Assembly (NCBI GenBank): GCA_963714015.1
Contig: OY970223.1
Coordinates: 3,488,001 to 3,552,000, forward strand
Direction: 5' to 3'
DNA: 64,000 bases
DNA from: Vulcanimicrobiota bacterium
GTDB lineage: Bacteria; Vulcanimicrobiota; Vulcanimicrobiia; Vulcanimicrobiales; Vulcanimicrobiaceae
Shown here: positions 4,721 to 15,952 of the stretch, in pieces
Position numbering within the stretch: the first letter of the stretch is position 1
How the letters are laid out: every line of letters begins with the position of its first letter
The notes under the pieces: generated by a model
Databases searched by the model: none
The model's input: the letters and a program-made list of their open reading frames with translations, nothing else
What the model was told of the DNA's origin: nothing
Program-made: the position numbers and the translations under genes

Positions 4721-6738
4721 CAGCGCGAACCTCCGGCAAGCGCGTAATAGACCGCAAAGCATGCAGCTCCCGCTACCACGATGAACGCGTACGCGCGCAG
4801 AAGTCCGGTTTGAAAGCTGCGGACCAGCGCCGAGAGGAAACGATTGGTGATCACGACTTCGCGCACGGCGCCGTCGACGAGATGCGGATCGAACCAATCG
4901 CCGAACCAACGTCCAACGGCCTGCGCCGGCCGGACGAACAGCACCCCGAGCAAATCGTCGAAGTAGTAAAGCCGAACCAGTATGCGAGGCAGGGTCTGGG
5001 TTTCGCGACGCAGCCGTGCAGGCGCGTCTCGGAGCGCTTCGGGCGTCATGTAACGCGCGAAAGCAACGCCTAACCCAATGAGGAGCATGACGATCGCGAT
5101 GGCGGTCGTCATGGCTTCGCTGGGCGCCATGTGCGGCAACGGTTCATTCGGAAAGGAGCGGGCGAAGAATTGCGCCCAAGGCGAGCTCGGACCGATCATA
5201 ATGTAGCCCGCCGCGAACGAGAAGAACCCCAAGATTGCAACGGGCAGGGCCATGATCCAGGCCGGCGCGTGCGCATCATCTCGGTGCTCGGGTCCGCCCG
5301 CGGCGTGCGGATCGACTCTGTGCTGCTTCGCGGCGCCGCTCGAACTCATGGCGCCCGGCGTGGCTGTTCCGGACGTAATCCCCAAGTCCGCAGGATTCAT
5401 CTCGCCGCGGTACGTTCCGTAGAACGTGACGAAGAACAGGCGGAACATGTAATACGCGGTGATGCCGGCCGTGATCAGGCCGACGGCCCACATCCACGTG
5501 TACCCGTGTTCGAGCGCGCCGTAGATGACTTGATCCTTGCTGAAGTAGCCGGCAAATCCGGGGAAACCGCTGATTGCCAGCACTGCCGCAAACATCGCCC
5601 AAAACGCAACGGGCGTGCGCTTGCGCATACCGCCCATGAGCCGGATGTCTTGCTCGTCGGCCAGCTCGTGAATGATGATGCCCGATCCGAGGAACAAGCA
5701 CGCTTTGAAGAACGCGTGCGTAAAGAAATGCGCGACGCCGGCGGTGTATGCGCCTACGCCGACGCCCATGATCATATAGCCGATCTGCGACATCGTCGAA
5801 TAGGCCAGAATCCGTTTGATGTCCCATTGCGCGGTGCCGAGAAGCGCGCCGGCGAGCGCGGTCAAGGCGCCGACCGCTCCGGCGAGCGTCTGCGCGTCGT
5901 GCGAGGCGCTCCAGAGCGGAGCGCAGCGGGCAATCAAATACACGCCGGCCGTAACCATAGTAGCCGCGTGAATCAACGCGGAAACGGGGGTCGGACCTTC
6001 CATCGCATCGGGAAGCCACGTATGGAGCGGAAGCTGCGCCGACTTGGCGGCCGCGCCGACGAAGAGGAACGCGCACGTCCAGAACAACCACGGATCCAGC
6101 GCGTGCGGATTGGCAAAAACGTCCGCGAACGAAATCGATCCGACGCGCGCGACGATGATGAAGATCGCGAACATAATGCCGACGTCGCCGACCACGTTGA
6201 TGACGAACGCCTTTCGCGCCGCCGCGACGGCCGAGGGCTTGAAGAACCAGAAGCCGATCAGAAAATACGAAGCAAGTCCAACCAGACCCCAGCCGACGAG
6301 CAGTCCGACGAAGTTGTCGGAGAGGACCAGCGTGAGCATCGCGAAGACGAAGAAATTCATGTACGCGAAGAAGCGCGCAATCGCGCTGTCGGACCACATG
6401 TAGCCGATCGAGTACGCATGGATCAAAAACCCGACGCCCGTGATGATCAGCGCCCAGATCAGCGAGAGCGGATCGAACAGCAGCCCGAAGTTGAATCCGG
6501 GCATCCAAGTGAAGAGTTGTTGATGCGCGCCAAGCTGCGAGTCGCTGCTCTGCACGGCGCTTCCCCATGCAGCCAGCGTCGCGATAAAGGACGCGCCGAG
6601 CACGGCGGTTCCGAGCCAAGCGCTCCCGCGCTTGAGCTGCGGCCCAAAGGCCCAATTTGCGATCGCTCCGGCAAGCGGCAACAGCCAGATGATGAACAGC
6701 ACCGGATACGTACCGTCGATTCCCATCTGATGAGTCAT
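4720..6738 (-). CDS. nuoL: NADH-quinone oxidoreductase subunit L
   Basis: KSAQLPLHTWLPDAMEGPTPVSALIHAATMVTAGVYL, HAFFKACLFL. Confidence 0.96.
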   Translation of the reverse strand: MTHQMGIDGTYPVLFIIWLLPLAGAIANWAFGPQLKRGSAWLGTAVLGASFIATLAAWGSAVQSSDSQLGAHQQLFTWMPGFNFGLLFDPLSLIWALIITGVGFLIHAYSIGYMWSDSAIARFFAYMNFFVFAMLTLVLSDNFVGLLVGWGLVGLASYFLIGFWFFKPSAVAAARKAFVINVVGDVGIMFAIFIIVARVGSISFADVFANPHALDPWLFWTCAFLFVGAAAKSAQLPLHTWLPDAMEGPTPVSALIHAATMVTAGVYLIARCAPLWSASHDAQTLAGAVGALTALAGALLGTAQWDIKRILAYSTMSQIGYMIMGVGVGAYTAGVAHFFTHAFFKACLFLGSGIIIHELADEQDIRLMGGMRKRTPVAFWAMFAAVLAISGFPGFAGYFSKDQVIYGALEHGYTWMWAVGLITAGITAYYMFRLFFVTFYGTYRGEMNPADLGITSGTATPGAMSSSGAAKQHRVDPHAAGGPEHRDDAHAPAWIMALPVAILGFFSFAAGYIMIGPSSPWAQFFARSFPNEPLPHMAPSEAMTTAIAIVMLLIGLGVAFARYMTPEALRDAPARLRRETQTLPRILVRLYYFDDLLGVLFVRPAQAVGRWFGDWFDPHLVDGAVREVVITNRFLSALVRSFQTGLLRAYAFIVVAGAACFAVYYALAGGSR

Positions 6739-6775
6739 CCCGTCTCACCCATTCGTTCATACCGTGGCAAGGCTT

Positions 6776-11660: not shown

Positions 11661-12923
11661 TCATGCGGGCAAAGCCTTCTCTTGGATCGCGCGAGCTTGG
11701 AATTGCTCGGGGAAGCGCTTGAGCACCGAAAGCAAGAAAGGCTCGATGGAATCGCCGAGCGGACACAAGTTGATTCCGGTGATCTGATGCCCCACTTTGA
11801 GCAGCATATCGATGTCGGACCGAAGCGCGCGGCCCTCCACGAAACGGTGGAGCACGGTTTCGAGCCAATCGCCGCCCTCGCGGCACGGCGTGCACTGTCC
11901 GCACGATTCGTGCGCGAAGAAGCGCACCAAATTAAAGGCGGCTTTGACGAAATCGGTCGTGTCGTCCATTACGACCATCGCGCCGGAGCCGAGCATCGTG
12001 CCGGCTTTCGCGAGCGACTCGTAGTCGTACGGAAGATCGAGATGCTCCTCGAAGATGCACGCCGACGAACCGCCGCCCGGCTGAATCGCCATGAGCTTGC
12101 GTCCGTCGCGCAATCCGCCGGCGATCTCGATGAGTTCGCGCACCGGAATGCCCAGCGGCACCTCGTAGTTCCCGGGCTTTTTGACGTGCCCGCTGATGGA
12201 GATGATCTTGTAGCCCTTGCTGCGCTCGGTACCGGCGGCGGCAAACCACTCGGCGCCTTTTTCGAGAATCGGCACCAAATACGCGAGCGTTTCGACGTTG
12301 TTCACGACCGTCGGCATGCCGTACAATCCGGCTACCGCCGGAAAAGGCGGCTTCAGGCGCGGTTCGCCGCGCTTGCCTTCCAGCGAATTGAGCAGCGCGG
12401 TCTCTTCACCGCAGATGTACGCGCCCGCCCCGCGATGCACGGTGACCTCGAGATCGTAACCGGTTCCGAAAAGGTTCTTGCCGATGAATCCGGCCGCGCG
12501 CGCTTGCGCCACCGCGTCCATGAAGATTTGGTAGCCCCGTTTGAACTCGCCGCGAATATACATATATGCGTGGTGCGATCCGATGCCGTAGGCGCCCAGC
12601 AGAATCCCCTCGAGAACCAGATGCGGCGTCTCTTCGAGCAGCATGTGATCTTTGAACGTGCCGGGCTCGGCTTCGTCGCAGTTGCAGACCAAATAACGCG
12701 GCTTATCGTTACCGGGCAGGAACGACCATTTGCGCCCGGTCGGAAATCCGGCGCCGCCGCGTCCGCGAAGGCCCGATTTGTCCGCCGCCTCCAATACGTC
12801 GGCGGGCTTCAGCGTCTTGAACGCGCGCTGCAACTGTTTGTAGCCGCCCCGGTCTTTGTAGACCGCGATGTCGCGCAGATTCGCCTCGCCGATTCCTTCG
12901 GTGAGCACTTTGACCACCGGCAT
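11661..12923 (-). CDS. nuoF: NADH-quinone oxidoreductase subunit F
   Basis: GLRGRGGAGFPTGRKW, GAGAYICGEETALLNSLEG, HESCGQCTPCREG. Confidence 0.97.
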   Translation of the reverse strand: MPVVKVLTEGIGEANLRDIAVYKDRGGYKQLQRAFKTLKPADVLEAADKSGLRGRGGAGFPTGRKWSFLPGNDKPRYLVCNCDEAEPGTFKDHMLLEETPHLVLEGILLGAYGIGSHHAYMYIRGEFKRGYQIFMDAVAQARAAGFIGKNLFGTGYDLEVTVHRGAGAYICGEETALLNSLEGKRGEPRLKPPFPAVAGLYGMPTVVNNVETLAYLVPILEKGAEWFAAAGTERSKGYKIISISGHVKKPGNYEVPLGIPVRELIEIAGGLRDGRKLMAIQPGGGSSACIFEEHLDLPYDYESLAKAGTMLGSGAMVVMDDTTDFVKAAFNLVRFFAHESCGQCTPCREGGDWLETVLHRFVEGRALRSDIDMLLKVGHQITGINLCPLGDSIEPFLLSVLKRFPEQFQARAIQEKALPA

Positions 12924-13684
12924 CAGTGCGCCGCTCCGTCTTCGAGTACCGCTGCAATCGCCGGTTCCACGTTGGCTAGACGCTCTTTCGTCCGCCCCTT
13001 AAAACGCGCTTCCTGCATGATGATGCGATCGAGCATGATGATCCCGTCTTTATCCAAACCGCCGGCGTTGTCCGGATTCGGCTGGTCGATCGCGCCCGCG
13101 GACTTCTCACCGGTCGAGACCTGCGTGCCTTGATTTACCGTCCAAGTGCGTGCCGGCGCTTCGGTTTGCGCCATGGGCGCCACGGGATACGTGCCCGCGC
13201 GCATGGCCGCGATCATCTCGTCGATCATCCGCGGCTCAAGATCGTACACGAACTCGAGATTCACCTGCATGCACGTCGCGCGGTCGCAAGCCGCAAGACA
13301 CTCGACCTCTTCGTACGAAAACAACCCGTCGGCCGTCGTCTGCAGATGGCCGATGCCGAGCTTCTCCCGAAAGTACGCCATGACGTCTTCCGCGCCGTCG
13401 ATCGTGCACGCCAATCCGCGGCACACCTGAAGCACGTACTTGCCGACCGGCCTACGAAAGAACAGCGTGTAAAACGAAACCGTCGACTCCACCACGGCGA
13501 GCGAAAGGTCGAGCATCTCGCTAACCGCGCGCATCGCCTCCGGACTTGCAAATCCCTCATGTTCCTGGAACAAGTGCACCAGCGGCAGCAGCGCCGAACG
13601 CGGCTGCTCGTACTGCGCAATAATCGCCTCACACTGCGGCTTTAATCGCTCTCGCAGCGCCGCAAAATCATCGACTCTGCTCAT
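12923..13684 (-). CDS. nuoE: NADH-quinone oxidoreductase subunit E (C-terminally extended)
   Basis: SFYTLF, VCRGLAC, VECLAAC 2Fe-2S ligands. ATG 13684 has GGAG 5 nt upstream; stop in a TGATG overlap with nuoF. Confidence 0.93.
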   Translation of the reverse strand: MSRVDDFAALRERLKPQCEAIIAQYEQPRSALLPLVHLFQEHEGFASPEAMRAVSEMLDLSLAVVESTVSFYTLFFRRPVGKYVLQVCRGLACTIDGAEDVMAYFREKLGIGHLQTTADGLFSYEEVECLAACDRATCMQVNLEFVYDLEPRMIDEMIAAMRAGTYPVAPMAQTEAPARTWTVNQGTQVSTGEKSAGAIDQPNPDNAGGLDKDGIIMLDRIIMQEARFKGRTKERLANVEPAIAAVLEDGAAH

Positions 13685-13692
13685 GCCTGCTC

Positions 13693-13891
13693 CGTATTGC
13701 GCAGCGCATCGCGGCCGGCGACCGGCATCCGTGCATGTCGCCGCTAGAAAATTTCCATCCGTGGAAATTTTCTGCTCGCGCCGCATTTTTCGCAAAACAA
13801 GTTTTGAAGCTGCCATCCCGGCAGGGCGAAAAATGTCGGAGCGCGCCGTGCACGCAGCCGTGTCGCCGGCCGCGATGCGTTACGAAATTCG
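13693..13891. repeat. Structured intergenic element, copy E2: imperfect ~52-bp inverted arms around a ~94-nt multi-hairpin core
   Basis: Perfect 18-bp IR 13705-13722/13862-13879 extends imperfectly to 13693-13745/13840-13891. Inner stems 13746-13757/13762-13773, 13784-13793/13826-13835 and 13810-13814/13820-13824. Confidence 0.85.
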
Positions 13892-13945
13892 TCGTATCAA
13901 GCGTGCGTCAAGGCGCCGATTTGCGGCACGCGCTTTATTCCACAA

Positions 13946-14146
13946 GCTGATGCGAGGAATGCGTGAGGTTGGGCGGGATCACCGGTTCGGGGGACACTCT
14001 GATAATTTCGCGCAAACCCGGAGGGTTTCTTCAAAACTTCGTTCTCGCGAAATTTCAGGTAGCAGAAAATTGCCATGGAGGGCAATTTTCGAGCGTGTCC
14101 CCGGAACCGGTGATCCCGCCCAACCTCACGCATTCCTCGCATCAGC
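13946..14146. repeat. Structured intergenic element, copy E1: 52-bp inverted arms around a 97-nt multi-hairpin core, opposite orientation to E2
   Basis: Arms 13946-13997 and 14095-14146 are reverse complements at 51/52 positions. Inner stems 14004-14012/14046-14054, 14014-14019/14023-14028 and 14065-14074/14081-14090. The core is homologous to the reverse complement of the E2 core. Confidence 0.9.
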
Positions 14147-15353
14147 GATCCACCTCGCCGAAAACGGGATCCAGAGAGCCGATCATCACGACGAGGTCGG
14201 CGATCAGATTGCCGGGCGCGAGACCTTTGAGCGATTGCAGGTTGTACATCGACGGCGGCCGCGTGCGAATGCGATAAGGGCGGTTTCCTCCGTCGGAGAC
14301 CAGATAGAAGCCGAGTTCGCCGCGGGGGCCTTCGACGGCTTGGTAGACGTCGCCGGGCGGGACGCGGAAGCCTTCGGTCATGATTTTGAAGTGATGGATC
14401 AGCGCTTCCATTGAGAGCGCGATCGTTTCTTTGGGCGGAGCGACGATCTTGGCGTCGTCGATCGTTACGGGACCGGGTTGGAGCGTGCGCCGGATCTGCT
14501 CGATGATGCGCATCGACTCTTCCATCTCGTCCAGACGCACCAGGAAACGTGCGTAAGAGTCGCCTTCCTCCCGCGTAGGAATGTCGAACTGATAGTTTTC
14601 GTAGCCGCAATAAGGATAGGCTTTACGGACGTCGTATGCGACGCCGCTTGCGCGCAGGCTCGGACCGGTGACGCTCCACTGGACCGCTTCTTCCGGCGTC
14701 ATGATTCCCACGTCGATCATGCGATCTTGCAGAATGGGATTGGCCTGGAGCAGCGCCCGCAGATCGCGCATGCGTCCGGGAAACTTTTCGATGAGCGCGT
14801 CCAGGCGGTCGAGATATCCCTCCGGCAGATCGCCGTTCACGCCGCCGACGCGCATGTAATTGGGATGCATGCGCGCGCCGCCGGCGGCCTCTTGCATGTC
14901 GAGGATATTCTCGCGCAGATCGAACGTGTAGAAAAACACCGAAAGCGCGCCCAGATCGATCCCGCCCGTTCCGAGCCAGACGCAGTGCGAAGCGATGCGC
15001 GTGAGTTCGGCGCTCAGCACGCGAATCTGCTGCGCGCGCTGCGGAATGTCGTTCGTGATGCCGAGCAGTTTCTCGACTGCGAGCGCATAACACAGCGCGT
15101 TGCTGCTGGGCGCAAGATAGTCCATGCGCTCGACGTTCGTCTGTGCCGTCGACCAGAACTGATTTTCGCAATTCTTTTCGATGCCCGTGTGGAGATAACC
15201 GATCTCCGGCTCGGCTTTGACGATGTTCTCGCCTTCGATCTCCAGCATGATCTGCAGAACGCCGTGCGTCGAGGGATGCTGCGGTCCCATCGAGAGGACC
15301 ATCGAGTTCCCGTCTTTGGAGACGATCTCGGGAGTGAGCGCGGTAAACGACAT
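14142..15353 (-). CDS. nuoD: NADH-quinone oxidoreductase subunit D
   Basis: SMGPQHPSTHGVL, IGYLHTGIEK, C-terminal GSLDPVFGEVDR. Start in a TGATG overlap with nuoC. Confidence 0.97.
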   Translation of the reverse strand: MSFTALTPEIVSKDGNSMVLSMGPQHPSTHGVLQIMLEIEGENIVKAEPEIGYLHTGIEKNCENQFWSTAQTNVERMDYLAPSSNALCYALAVEKLLGITNDIPQRAQQIRVLSAELTRIASHCVWLGTGGIDLGALSVFFYTFDLRENILDMQEAAGGARMHPNYMRVGGVNGDLPEGYLDRLDALIEKFPGRMRDLRALLQANPILQDRMIDVGIMTPEEAVQWSVTGPSLRASGVAYDVRKAYPYCGYENYQFDIPTREEGDSYARFLVRLDEMEESMRIIEQIRRTLQPGPVTIDDAKIVAPPKETIALSMEALIHHFKIMTEGFRVPPGDVYQAVEGPRGELGFYLVSDGGNRPYRIRTRPPSMYNLQSLKGLAPGNLIADLVVMIGSLDPVFGEVDR

Positions 15354-15952
15354 CAGCGGCCTTCGCGAGCTTTGGCGATCTGCGCTTGCAGCGCTTCCAG
15401 CGTGCGTCCGGACGGCGGCGTGCCGGCATTCACGTTGCTCTTCAGAGCGAACGCCGGGCGCGGCGAATGCTCGCGCGCCGGGCCGCGCAGCGGGTAGTCC
15501 TTGCGCAGCGGATAGCCTTCCCAATCGTTGGGCATTTGAATGCGGCGCATATCGGGATGCCCTTCGAACGCGATCCCGAACAGATCGTAGATCTCGCGCT
15601 CAGCCCAGTCCGCAGACTTCCACAAGTCCGTTGAGGTGGGAAGTAACGGACGTTCGTCCGGAACGCCGCAAAGCAGCCGCAAGCGTTGGGGAGCACCCAC
15701 TTCGGCAACGTTCGATTTGCGCAGCGGCATCTTCAGCAGATGGTAAACGACGTCGAAGCGCGGCGCGCGCTCGGGGTAATCGGCACCGCCGATATCCAGC
15801 AAAAGCGAGTAACCCTCGGCCTTGAGCGCTTTAAGCCGCGAATGAAGCTGCTCGGGCTGGATGCGCTCGATCTGAGCGTCGTCGATAGCCGGACGCACGG
15901 CAGTCGGGTCAATCGCGCCGCCCAACAGCGGCGGTGATTGCGTGCTTGGCAT
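15353..15952 (-). CDS. nuoC: NADH-quinone oxidoreductase subunit C
   Basis: ADWAEREIYDLFGIAFEGHPDMRRI, GYPLRKDYPL. Confidence 0.96.
   Translation of the reverse strand: MPSTQSPPLLGGAIDPTAVRPAIDDAQIERIQPEQLHSRLKALKAEGYSLLLDIGGADYPERAPRFDVVYHLLKMPLRKSNVAEVGAPQRLRLLCGVPDERPLLPTSTDLWKSADWAEREIYDLFGIAFEGHPDMRRIQMPNDWEGYPLRKDYPLRGPAREHSPRPAFALKSNVNAGTPPSGRTLEALQAQIAKAREGR

Follow-up and report, generated by a model that had tools for sequence, protein, structure and literature searches.

Why are nuoD and nuoE separated by 457 nt in this genome, and what are the two long inverted repeats, E1 and E2, that lie between them? Positions given without further qualification are those of the window, the whole 64,000-nt stretch of DNA that was analyzed. 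Both genes are read from the minus strand, nuoD (Complex1_49kDa; PF00346, E = 3e-111) at 14142 to 15524 and nuoE (2Fe-2S_thioredx; PF01257, E = 9e-44) at 12923 to 13684, and the distance between the nuoD stop codon (14142 to 14144) and the nuoE ATG (13684 to 13682) agreed with that given in an earlier note on this DNA. In 27 of 30 relatives, including both genomes of the same genus, nuoD and nuoE overlap or are at most 50 nt apart (a gap of 43 nt in G001, overlapping genes in G002; the short-gap rows take in the unpublished genomes G010 and G021), and E1 and E2 were therefore taken to be insertions.

E1 (13946 to 14146) carries its core in what is here called the forward orientation on the minus strand and begins in the last 5 nt of nuoD (GC plus TGA), and E2 (13693 to 13891) carries its core forward on the plus strand; a 54-nt spacer (13892 to 13945) lies between them, outside both folds. 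An inverted-repeat search of the window returned arms of 55 nt for E1 (13946 to 14000 and 14092 to 14146; 96% complementary) and of 49 nt for E2 (13693 to 13741 and 13843 to 13891; 78% complementary). Upon stem extension, the E1 arms, claimed to pair at 51 of 52 positions, indeed reached 52 nt with one mismatch: the low-coordinate arm (13946 to 13997), which is copy-specific and has no other match in the genome, pairs with the high-coordinate arm (14095 to 14146), the outer end of which contains the nuoD stop codon. The perfect 18-bp run ascribed to the E2 arms was present as an exact 18-nt stretch; the well-paired arms of E2 comprised 13705 to 13745 and 13840 to 13879, and the outer part paired weakly. 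The tetramer GGAG could be read by eye at 13695 to 13692, at the base of this weak outer stem and ahead of nuoE.

Between the arms, the cores of the two elements were homologous in opposite orientation (13742 to 13776 versus 14061 to 14095; 35 nt, 86%), as had been noted, and matched the covariance model R1 (see below) at 13989 to 14098 on the minus strand in E1 (110.4 bits) and at 13739 to 13849 on the plus strand in E2 (112.9 bits). Hairpin 1 of E1 (14065 to 14090, minus strand) has an AT-rich, fully complementary (100%) 10-bp stem with covarying pairs and the loop CTCCAT on the minus strand, and its counterpart in E2 (13746 to 13773, plus strand) has a 12-bp stem, likewise 100% complementary, and the loop TCCG. 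Stem B of E1 (14004 to 14054, minus strand; 14004 to 14017 with 14041 to 14054, 86% complementary) encloses the 11-mer CTTCAAAACTT (14029 to 14039) and hairpin 3 (14014 to 14028), and stem B of E2 (13784 to 13835, plus strand; 13784 to 13793 with 13826 to 13835, 100% complementary) encloses the 11-mer AAGTTTTGAAG (13799 to 13809) and hairpin 3 (13811 to 13825, plus strand; CTGCCATCCCGGCAG). The sequences of the 15-nt hairpins and of the 11-mers matched those described, and no direct repeat was visible in the flanks of E1 or E2, in line with the reported absence of a target-site duplication. This first observation on E1 and E2 was confirmed in all its details and positions. When folded as single-stranded DNA, E1 reached −95.3 kcal/mol (z = −17.1) and E2 −77 kcal/mol (z = −10.0), and in either case none of 200 shuffled sequences folded as well.

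This genome (G000; a single contig of 3.56 Mb, 60.9% G+C) contains 17 copies, E1 and E2 among them. The same 17 full-length cores were recovered by BLAST, by an nhmmer profile, and by R1, a covariance model built on alignment A2, which bore out the idea of an element family, and the copies were set off from noise by a clean gap: nhmmer E values of the copies ranged from 6e-26 to 7e-14, and that of the next match was 0.49. The elements are non-coding and about 130 to 280 bp long. Their AT-rich core of about 105 nt folds into three helices: hairpin 1, with an AT-rich stem and the loop (A/C)TCC(A/G)T; stem B; and hairpin 3, the loop of which is ATCC. The sequence (A/C)TCC is common to the two hairpin loops, and AAGTTTTGAAG forms the junction. 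Two copies are present at each of three loci, inverted in the case of E2/E1 and of a pair near 3358 kb and in tandem in the case of a pair near 3386 kb.

Covariation in this core, claimed on the basis of the two copies in the window, was strong in the larger alignments. RNAalifold found compensatory changes at 19 of 23 pairs among the 17 copies. In the 65-copy alignment A3, 96.4% of 1,439 cells were paired, compared with 69.9% after shuffling (0 of 500 shuffles reached 96.4%) and 35 to 64% in slid controls; A3 was aligned to R1, and these pairing figures therefore lean towards the model. Both sides changed in 21 of 23 pairs, with 359 double-change cells versus 96.5 expected, and G-U pairs occupied 12 of the 1,439 cells. 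A scan of Rfam 15 (E ≤ 10) yielded no family near its threshold, in line with the earlier note, which could not assign the element to a known family: the best match, the generic long hairpin MIR918, scored 53.6 bits against a gathering threshold of 268, and Mcr7 (19.4 against 380) and TD-2 (19.4 against 48.7) also fell below theirs. Neither Rfam nor the literature on Eremiobacterota repeats and on repeats with a conserved center and variable arms, as judged by the titles and abstracts of the papers listed, yielded a description of this family. E1 and E2 are members of an undescribed bacterial DNA repeat family in which a conserved folded center is mounted on a long copy-specific stem, and with its multiple copies, intergenic position, lack of coding capacity, and covarying fold the family belongs to the broad kind of structured intergenic repeats.

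A core that is conserved and arms that are self-complementary but unrelated between copies, the combination first seen in E1 and E2, proved general across the family. Folding and stem extension gave nearly perfect Watson-Crick arms of 26 to 55 nt in 13 of the 17 copies, and in the other 4 the arms were short or decayed. Apart from the partner arm and a tandem sister copy, arms had no match elsewhere in the genome, and 10 of the 14 inverted repeats found genome-wide with arms of at least 20 nt and a spacing of at most 260 nt were these elements, the remaining 4 being unrelated. When 61 copies from five sources were combined, the arms contained 2,433 Watson-Crick pairs, 146 mismatches (17 of them G.T, over about 2,580 arm positions), and 52 gap positions; these 61 copies had no shared terminal motif and, by inspection of the flanks, no visible target-site duplication. 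TGATGCG ends three arms in this genome, and TGCGTT occurs in L187 and L190; neither is general. In the 5′ arm, G exceeded C in 46 of 56 copies and C exceeded G in 8, an excess that applies to both strands because the arms are palindromic.

Several sources of the arms were considered. An origin elsewhere in the genome, in donor flanks, or in the closest paralogue was rejected in view of the lack of matches, and so was copying from adjacent coding DNA, which matched only through the outermost 1 to 10 nt that overlap gene ends. Insertion into preexisting long palindromes was rejected for this genome, in which only 4 other inverted repeats with arms of at least 20 nt exist, none of them related; such insertion is possible for 5 of 16 copies in G001, the outer arms of which are another palindromic repeat.

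How core and arms evolve could be followed at an orthologous site in genus g49. The cores of G099 and G141 at this site were 90% identical, the flanking coding DNA was 72 to 79% identical, and the core orientation relative to the flanks was opposite in the two genomes. At the same site, G114 retained only the left arm (identical to that of G099 at 17 of 26 aligned positions) and the first ~11 nt of the core, and G131 had no element. Arms at this site are thus inherited and drift while staying complementary, and the core, which is strongly constrained, can invert between its arms. In seven within-genome pairs of copies, the cores were 98 to 100% identical (100% for L157/L158) and only 18 to 28 nt of inner arm were common to both; beyond 15 nt the outer arms scored 4 to 7, which is the null level (mean 5.0, 95th percentile 7.0). 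In 74 pairs of G011 copies that had a core identity of at least 90%, the identity of the arms was 0.90 at 0 to 10 nt and 0.56 to 0.60 beyond 30 nt, with a shuffled baseline of 0.47 to 0.56. Near-identical cores on unrelated outer arms show that the core moves or is homogenized among loci independently of the outer stem, and the identical cores on different arms could reflect gene conversion between old elements rather than new insertion. Paralogues that do share arms (L144/L147, L161/L168, L171/L172, and the tandem pair near 3386 kb) had all their differences compensated. Partial copies consisting of the left arm and a stub of the 5′ core were found in tandem in G181, G002, and L187 and alone in G114; our guess is that they arose by stalling and slippage at hairpin 1.

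Mismatches in the arms had a polarity. With the inner 12 nt excluded, 78 mismatches were of types with a mild effect on the complement of the forward strand, and 27 were of the mirror types; read on the forward strand, the 78 comprised 46 A.C/C.A, 13 C.C, and 19 T.C/C.T. A.C/C.A also accounted for 27 of 32 arm mismatches in G011, where G.T occurred once and where 9 of 20 copies had an A.C at 12 to 13 nt from the core. This polarity follows the core and not the direction of the flanking genes, transcription, or replication. Because mismatched arm positions occur only in folded DNA, selection or mutation acts on some folded single strand that has a defined polarity.

Occupied and empty junctions were compared, and some sites proved to have been targeted more than once. 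G014 had a single element of its own, with different arms, directly after the nuoD stop codon, and the nuoD-nuoE gaps of G005 (135 nt) and G011 (93 nt) held a different palindromic repeat. In 72 metagenome loci containing nuoD and nuoE, the gap was at most 55 nt in 37 and 70 to 457 nt in 35; the nhmmer core profile matched 4 of the 72 (L183, L189, L190, and L210), and R1 also matched L200, L208, and L243, more weakly. The closest metagenome NuoD was 88% identical, and there were no close strains. Several other metagenome gaps contained elements of similar appearance, with unique long arms and hairpins of the form GCCATCC(N)GGC, and related cores could be seen in L179, L200, L219, L230, and L248. 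The nuoK|nuoL junction was without an element in this genome (window positions about 6708 to 6767) and in G001, held a forward and a reverse copy in G181, and held one or more elements in G002. Downstream of dnaE, an element was present in G000 and G001 and the site was empty in G002. Near 776 kb, G000 and G002 were both occupied, with differing arms, a remnant in opposite orientation was present in G001, and G007 and G009 were empty. Two insertions in G104 were missing from each of 5 congeneric species, and a search of G104 with the arms of the second returned no further match. The elements have been inserted into short spacers beside gene ends.

Matches to R1 were found in 24 of 61 relatives including G000 (22 of 36 in family f1, 1 of 5 in f2, and 0 of 19 in f3; the tally takes in the unpublished genomes G021 and G030), with 1 to 37 copies per matching relative. 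In an even sample of the phylum, R1 at E ≤ 1e-5 matched 48 of 71 f1 genomes and none of 79 genomes from 20 other Eremiobacterota families. A strict hairpin-1 pattern matched 15 stretches in a collection of species genomes. Seven of them scored above 80 bits with R1 and were titled Baltobacteraceae, Rubrimentiphilum, Vulcanimicrobiota, or Eremiobacteraeota. A Treponema stretch scored at most 31.6 bits, three others scored about 23 to 24 bits (two titled Pseudomonadota or Acidiferrobacterales and one only "bacterium"), and the other Pseudomonadota, Salinimonas, and Gammaproteobacteria stretches had no R1 match at E ≤ 0.01; these low scores are explained by the hairpin itself. Viral contigs, plasmids, and phages gave no match. 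Among the genomes searched, the repeat family is confined to one Eremiobacterota family.

All 17 copies in this genome were intergenic. By our own crude gene caller, on which these context counts rest, the flanking genes at 14 loci were convergent in 5, codirectional in 9, and divergent in none, so that each copy has one or more genes upstream of it and is probably transcribed; an arm ended within 10 nt of a stop codon at 9 of the 14 loci. Neighbors were housekeeping genes, including pheS, polA, dnaE, fliP|fliQ, flagellin, infB, serS, and carB, and copies lay within operons at nuoD|nuoE and fliP|fliQ. Core orientation relative to the flanking genes was mixed (7 forward, 3 reverse), and there was no replication-strand bias (9 leading, 8 lagging, with the origin near 0.64 Mb and the terminus near 2.38 Mb). 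An ORF-end test on 100-nt flanks (left 32, right 30, of 58) was uninformative, and four regions of G011 dense in elements contained ordinary genes only.

No transposase, integrase, or reverse transcriptase domain was present among 57 proteins encoded next to the copies, and no transposase was present among a further 39. The elements carry no genes of their own and have no linked genes. The family, its covarying fold, its absence from Rfam, and its arm/core pattern stood as first described, and the suggested links to RAYT, IS110, and reverse transcriptases were not supported. Y1_Tnp (PF01797) was not found in G000 and occurred in 1 of 36 f1 genomes, G016, which has no element (this tally takes in the unpublished genome G059; control genomes scored). 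RVT_1, found in 2 of 24 family genomes searched, as well as the IS110 DEDD domain and the TnpB zinc ribbon, was not found in G000, G001, G002, or G006, which hold 17 to 24 copies each.

These results bear on the kinds of mobile repeat that the elements might represent. A REPIN-like doublet mobilized by a RAYT (HUH Y1) transposase would account for long intergenic hairpins and for recurring inverted pairs such as E1/E2, the two copies near 3358 kb, and the nuoK-nuoL pair of G181, but the distribution of PF01797 just described and the variability of the arms, which in REPINs are the conserved part, make this explanation very improbable. An ordinary MITE, that is, a deletion derivative of a DDE-type insertion sequence mobilized in trans and with diverged terminal repeats, agrees with the small non-coding format, with a copy number that varies from 1 to 37 among related genomes, and with the lineage specificity of some insertions. 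Against it, 61 copies were without conserved termini or target-site duplication, it is the center that is conserved, the ends are unrelated even between copies with identical cores, and no transposase lay beside the copies examined; we consider it unlikely, though less so than the REPIN-like doublet. A more serious contender is a structured RNA module in mRNAs, the stem of which would be a site of RNase III processing or 3′-end protection that uncouples or stabilizes cistrons, and the core of which would bind a protein, or the ribosome via CCUCC/GGAGG-like loops. The intergenic placement of all copies downstream of genes, the proximity of arm ends to stop codons, the presence of copies inside two operons, the strong covariation, and a core that is more conserved than neighboring coding DNA all fit such a module, and the 5 convergent loci, where both strands may be transcribed, could explain pairing that is Watson-Crick only. 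Yet stems that evolve as RNA are not usually as poor in G-U as this core, the elements lie in either orientation relative to the mRNA and can flip, mismatch polarity tracks the core and not the direction of flanking genes, and Rfam has no matching family. In addition, neither a sigma-70-like promoter or terminator-like consensus nor the short GC-rich hairpin and T run of an intrinsic terminator was found in 13500 to 14350. We judge the RNA module possible, and the less probable account when set beside action at the DNA level.

The explanation that we put forward, with confidence that is evenly divided, is a non-autonomous hairpin element that acts as folded single-stranded DNA and the stem of which is kept perfect by arm-to-arm template switching. 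Its active form would be folded single-stranded DNA of one polarity (the strand with GGAT/GGAG loops) or a cruciform, and a putative trans-acting protein would recognize the folded form. Intramolecular template switching, in which snap-back synthesis copies one arm from the other, would hold the stem perfectly Watson-Crick, rather than slow compensation at the RNA level. In the nuo operon, both copies would be cotranscribed as passengers, and the weak outer stem of E2 would end where the ribosome-binding site of nuoE lies. We lean towards DNA over RNA because wobble pairs are almost absent from core and arms, because the elements are placed without regard to orientation and can flip, and because mismatches are strand biased, with a polarity that follows the core and not transcription or replication. 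Two reports (PMC13100816, PMC8604942) describe template switching that homogenizes and expands inverted-repeat arms and inverts the spacer. Such switching, as at quasipalindromes, accounts for the perfect, drifting arms, for arm expansion, and for the inversion of the core, which here takes the place of the spacer; as a general mutational process, it leaves the conserved core and its spread unexplained.

Several points run counter to the single-stranded DNA reading. A nonpalindromic center of about 100 bp makes cruciform extrusion kinetically hard, and long perfect stems are good RNase III substrates too. Convergent or flipping elements may need both RNA strands folded, which would also exclude G-U, and the strand bias of the mismatches could be a mutational asymmetry and not the outcome of selection. 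That E1 and E2 were inserted independently of each other is a proposal that we hold jointly with the folded-DNA explanation and with the same, middling confidence. Rather doubtful, and below the RNA module in our estimate, is a transposase-independent, self-palindromizing DNA element, in which the core and about 18 to 28 bp of inner stem would be copied via a strand-specific single-stranded intermediate and the outer stem would be built anew by snap-back synthesis and kept by template switching. If this were true, the repeats would move and create sequence in a way so far undescribed among bacterial repeats, and no trans factor would be involved other than a host protein recognizing the two ATCC/GGAT loops.

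REP/BIME, ERIC, Correia, BOX/RUP, and the bcr repeats of Bacillus cereus are structured intergenic repeats that conserve their arms or termini. Like them, the present elements are short, non-coding, intergenic downstream of genes and in operons, present in many copies per genome, folded into hairpins, and lineage limited. Unlike them, they conserve only the hairpin tip, and each copy has a stem of its own in which mismatches and G-U pairs are almost absent; nor was RAYT found in G000 or a transposase found beside the copies examined. Integron attC sites and the ends of IS200/IS605 are recognized as folded single-stranded DNA of one strand, and the elements resemble these in conserving structure over sequence, in strand polarity, in a recurrent unpaired or mismatched stem position, and in lying just after stop codons. 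However, attC sites have conserved R and L boxes at the stem base and a variable tip, the reverse of the arrangement here, and belong to a cassette array with intI, whereas the copies here are dispersed among housekeeping genes; a Y1 HUH transposase was not found in G000. Intercistronic RNase III sites of phage T7 and rRNA processing stems likewise form long stems from sequences that flank a structured center between cistrons, but they occur in one orientation only, tolerate G-U, and are not dispersed repeats; the present elements are dispersed, occur in both orientations, and nearly lack G-U.

What is new here within structured intergenic repeats is the inverted conservation pattern, with no known partner enzyme found. 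The anatomy is the reverse of that of MITEs and REPINs, a constrained center on a long, perfectly paired stem that differs in each copy. Together with the inversion of the core, the strand-biased mismatches, and the fact that no known mobilizing enzyme was found, it makes the family a natural system for asking what gives rise to long palindromes in bacterial chromosomes and keeps them perfect and whether a repeat can spread by host replication or recombination alone. For the barely studied phylum Eremiobacterota/WPS-2, this is also the first repeat family to be defined, and a covariance model for it is at hand; the family marks recurrent insertion sites in essential operons, at the nuoD|nuoE and nuoK|nuoL junctions. 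The elements break assemblies, several copies being located at contig ends.

The nuoK|nuoL junction was compared in loci L266, L281 and L284 and in the window. In the source genome, G000, the junction (window about 6708-6767, about 37 to 58 nt) holds no element, and it is likewise free of the element in the relative G001. In the relative G181 (L266), two copies of the E1/E2-type element, one in the forward and one in the reverse orientation of the core, occupy this junction, and in G002 (L284) one or more elements are located there at a contig break. The nuoK|nuoL junction is a second site of recurrent element insertion within the nuo operon.

Partial copies, consisting of the left arm and the initial ~11 to 16 nt of the core, were found in L266, L284, L187 and L274 (G114). 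In the first three of these loci each full element is preceded on its upstream side by such a partial copy, arranged in tandem with it, and in L274 the partial copy is solitary. The breakpoint falls within the 5' strand of hairpin 1.

In eight metagenome nuoD-nuoE gaps (L179, L180, L200, L219, L223, L230, L243, and L248), the architecture matches that of the E1/E2 family, but stem B differs: the arms are long and unique, one hairpin has an AT stem and the loop CATCG/CATCC, and another reads GCCATCC(N)GGC. These elements matched the covariance model of the core weakly or not at all; together with the E1/E2 family they probably belong to a wider superfamily.

By eye, a GGAG can be read on the minus strand 5' of the nuoE start (13695-13692, in the region 13692-13705). 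It lies at the base of the weakly paired outer stem of E2; if E2 folds within the mRNA, nuoE translation initiation could be affected.

A distinct palindromic repeat family, with units of the GTCATCC[C/T]GAG...TCGAAGG type, is present at the nuoD-nuoE junction of G005 (L085) and G011 (L089) and also in L216, and in G001 it makes up the outer arms of 5/16 element copies (L143-L147), where these arms reach about 96 nt.

Other repeats lie outside the window. The perfect 35-bp arms of an inverted repeat at G000:C1:1393355-1393638 surround 214 nt containing several GC-rich hairpins, and this repeat is unrelated to the core family. In G104, a further short dispersed repeat (L289:201-333; 84 to 88% identity to copies in G179 and G120) lies about 900 nt from the element. 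A 21-bp inverted repeat at G000:C1:2550426-2550506 carries, inside one arm, a look-alike of a tRNA T-arm plus 3' end (GGGAGTTCGAATCTCCC).
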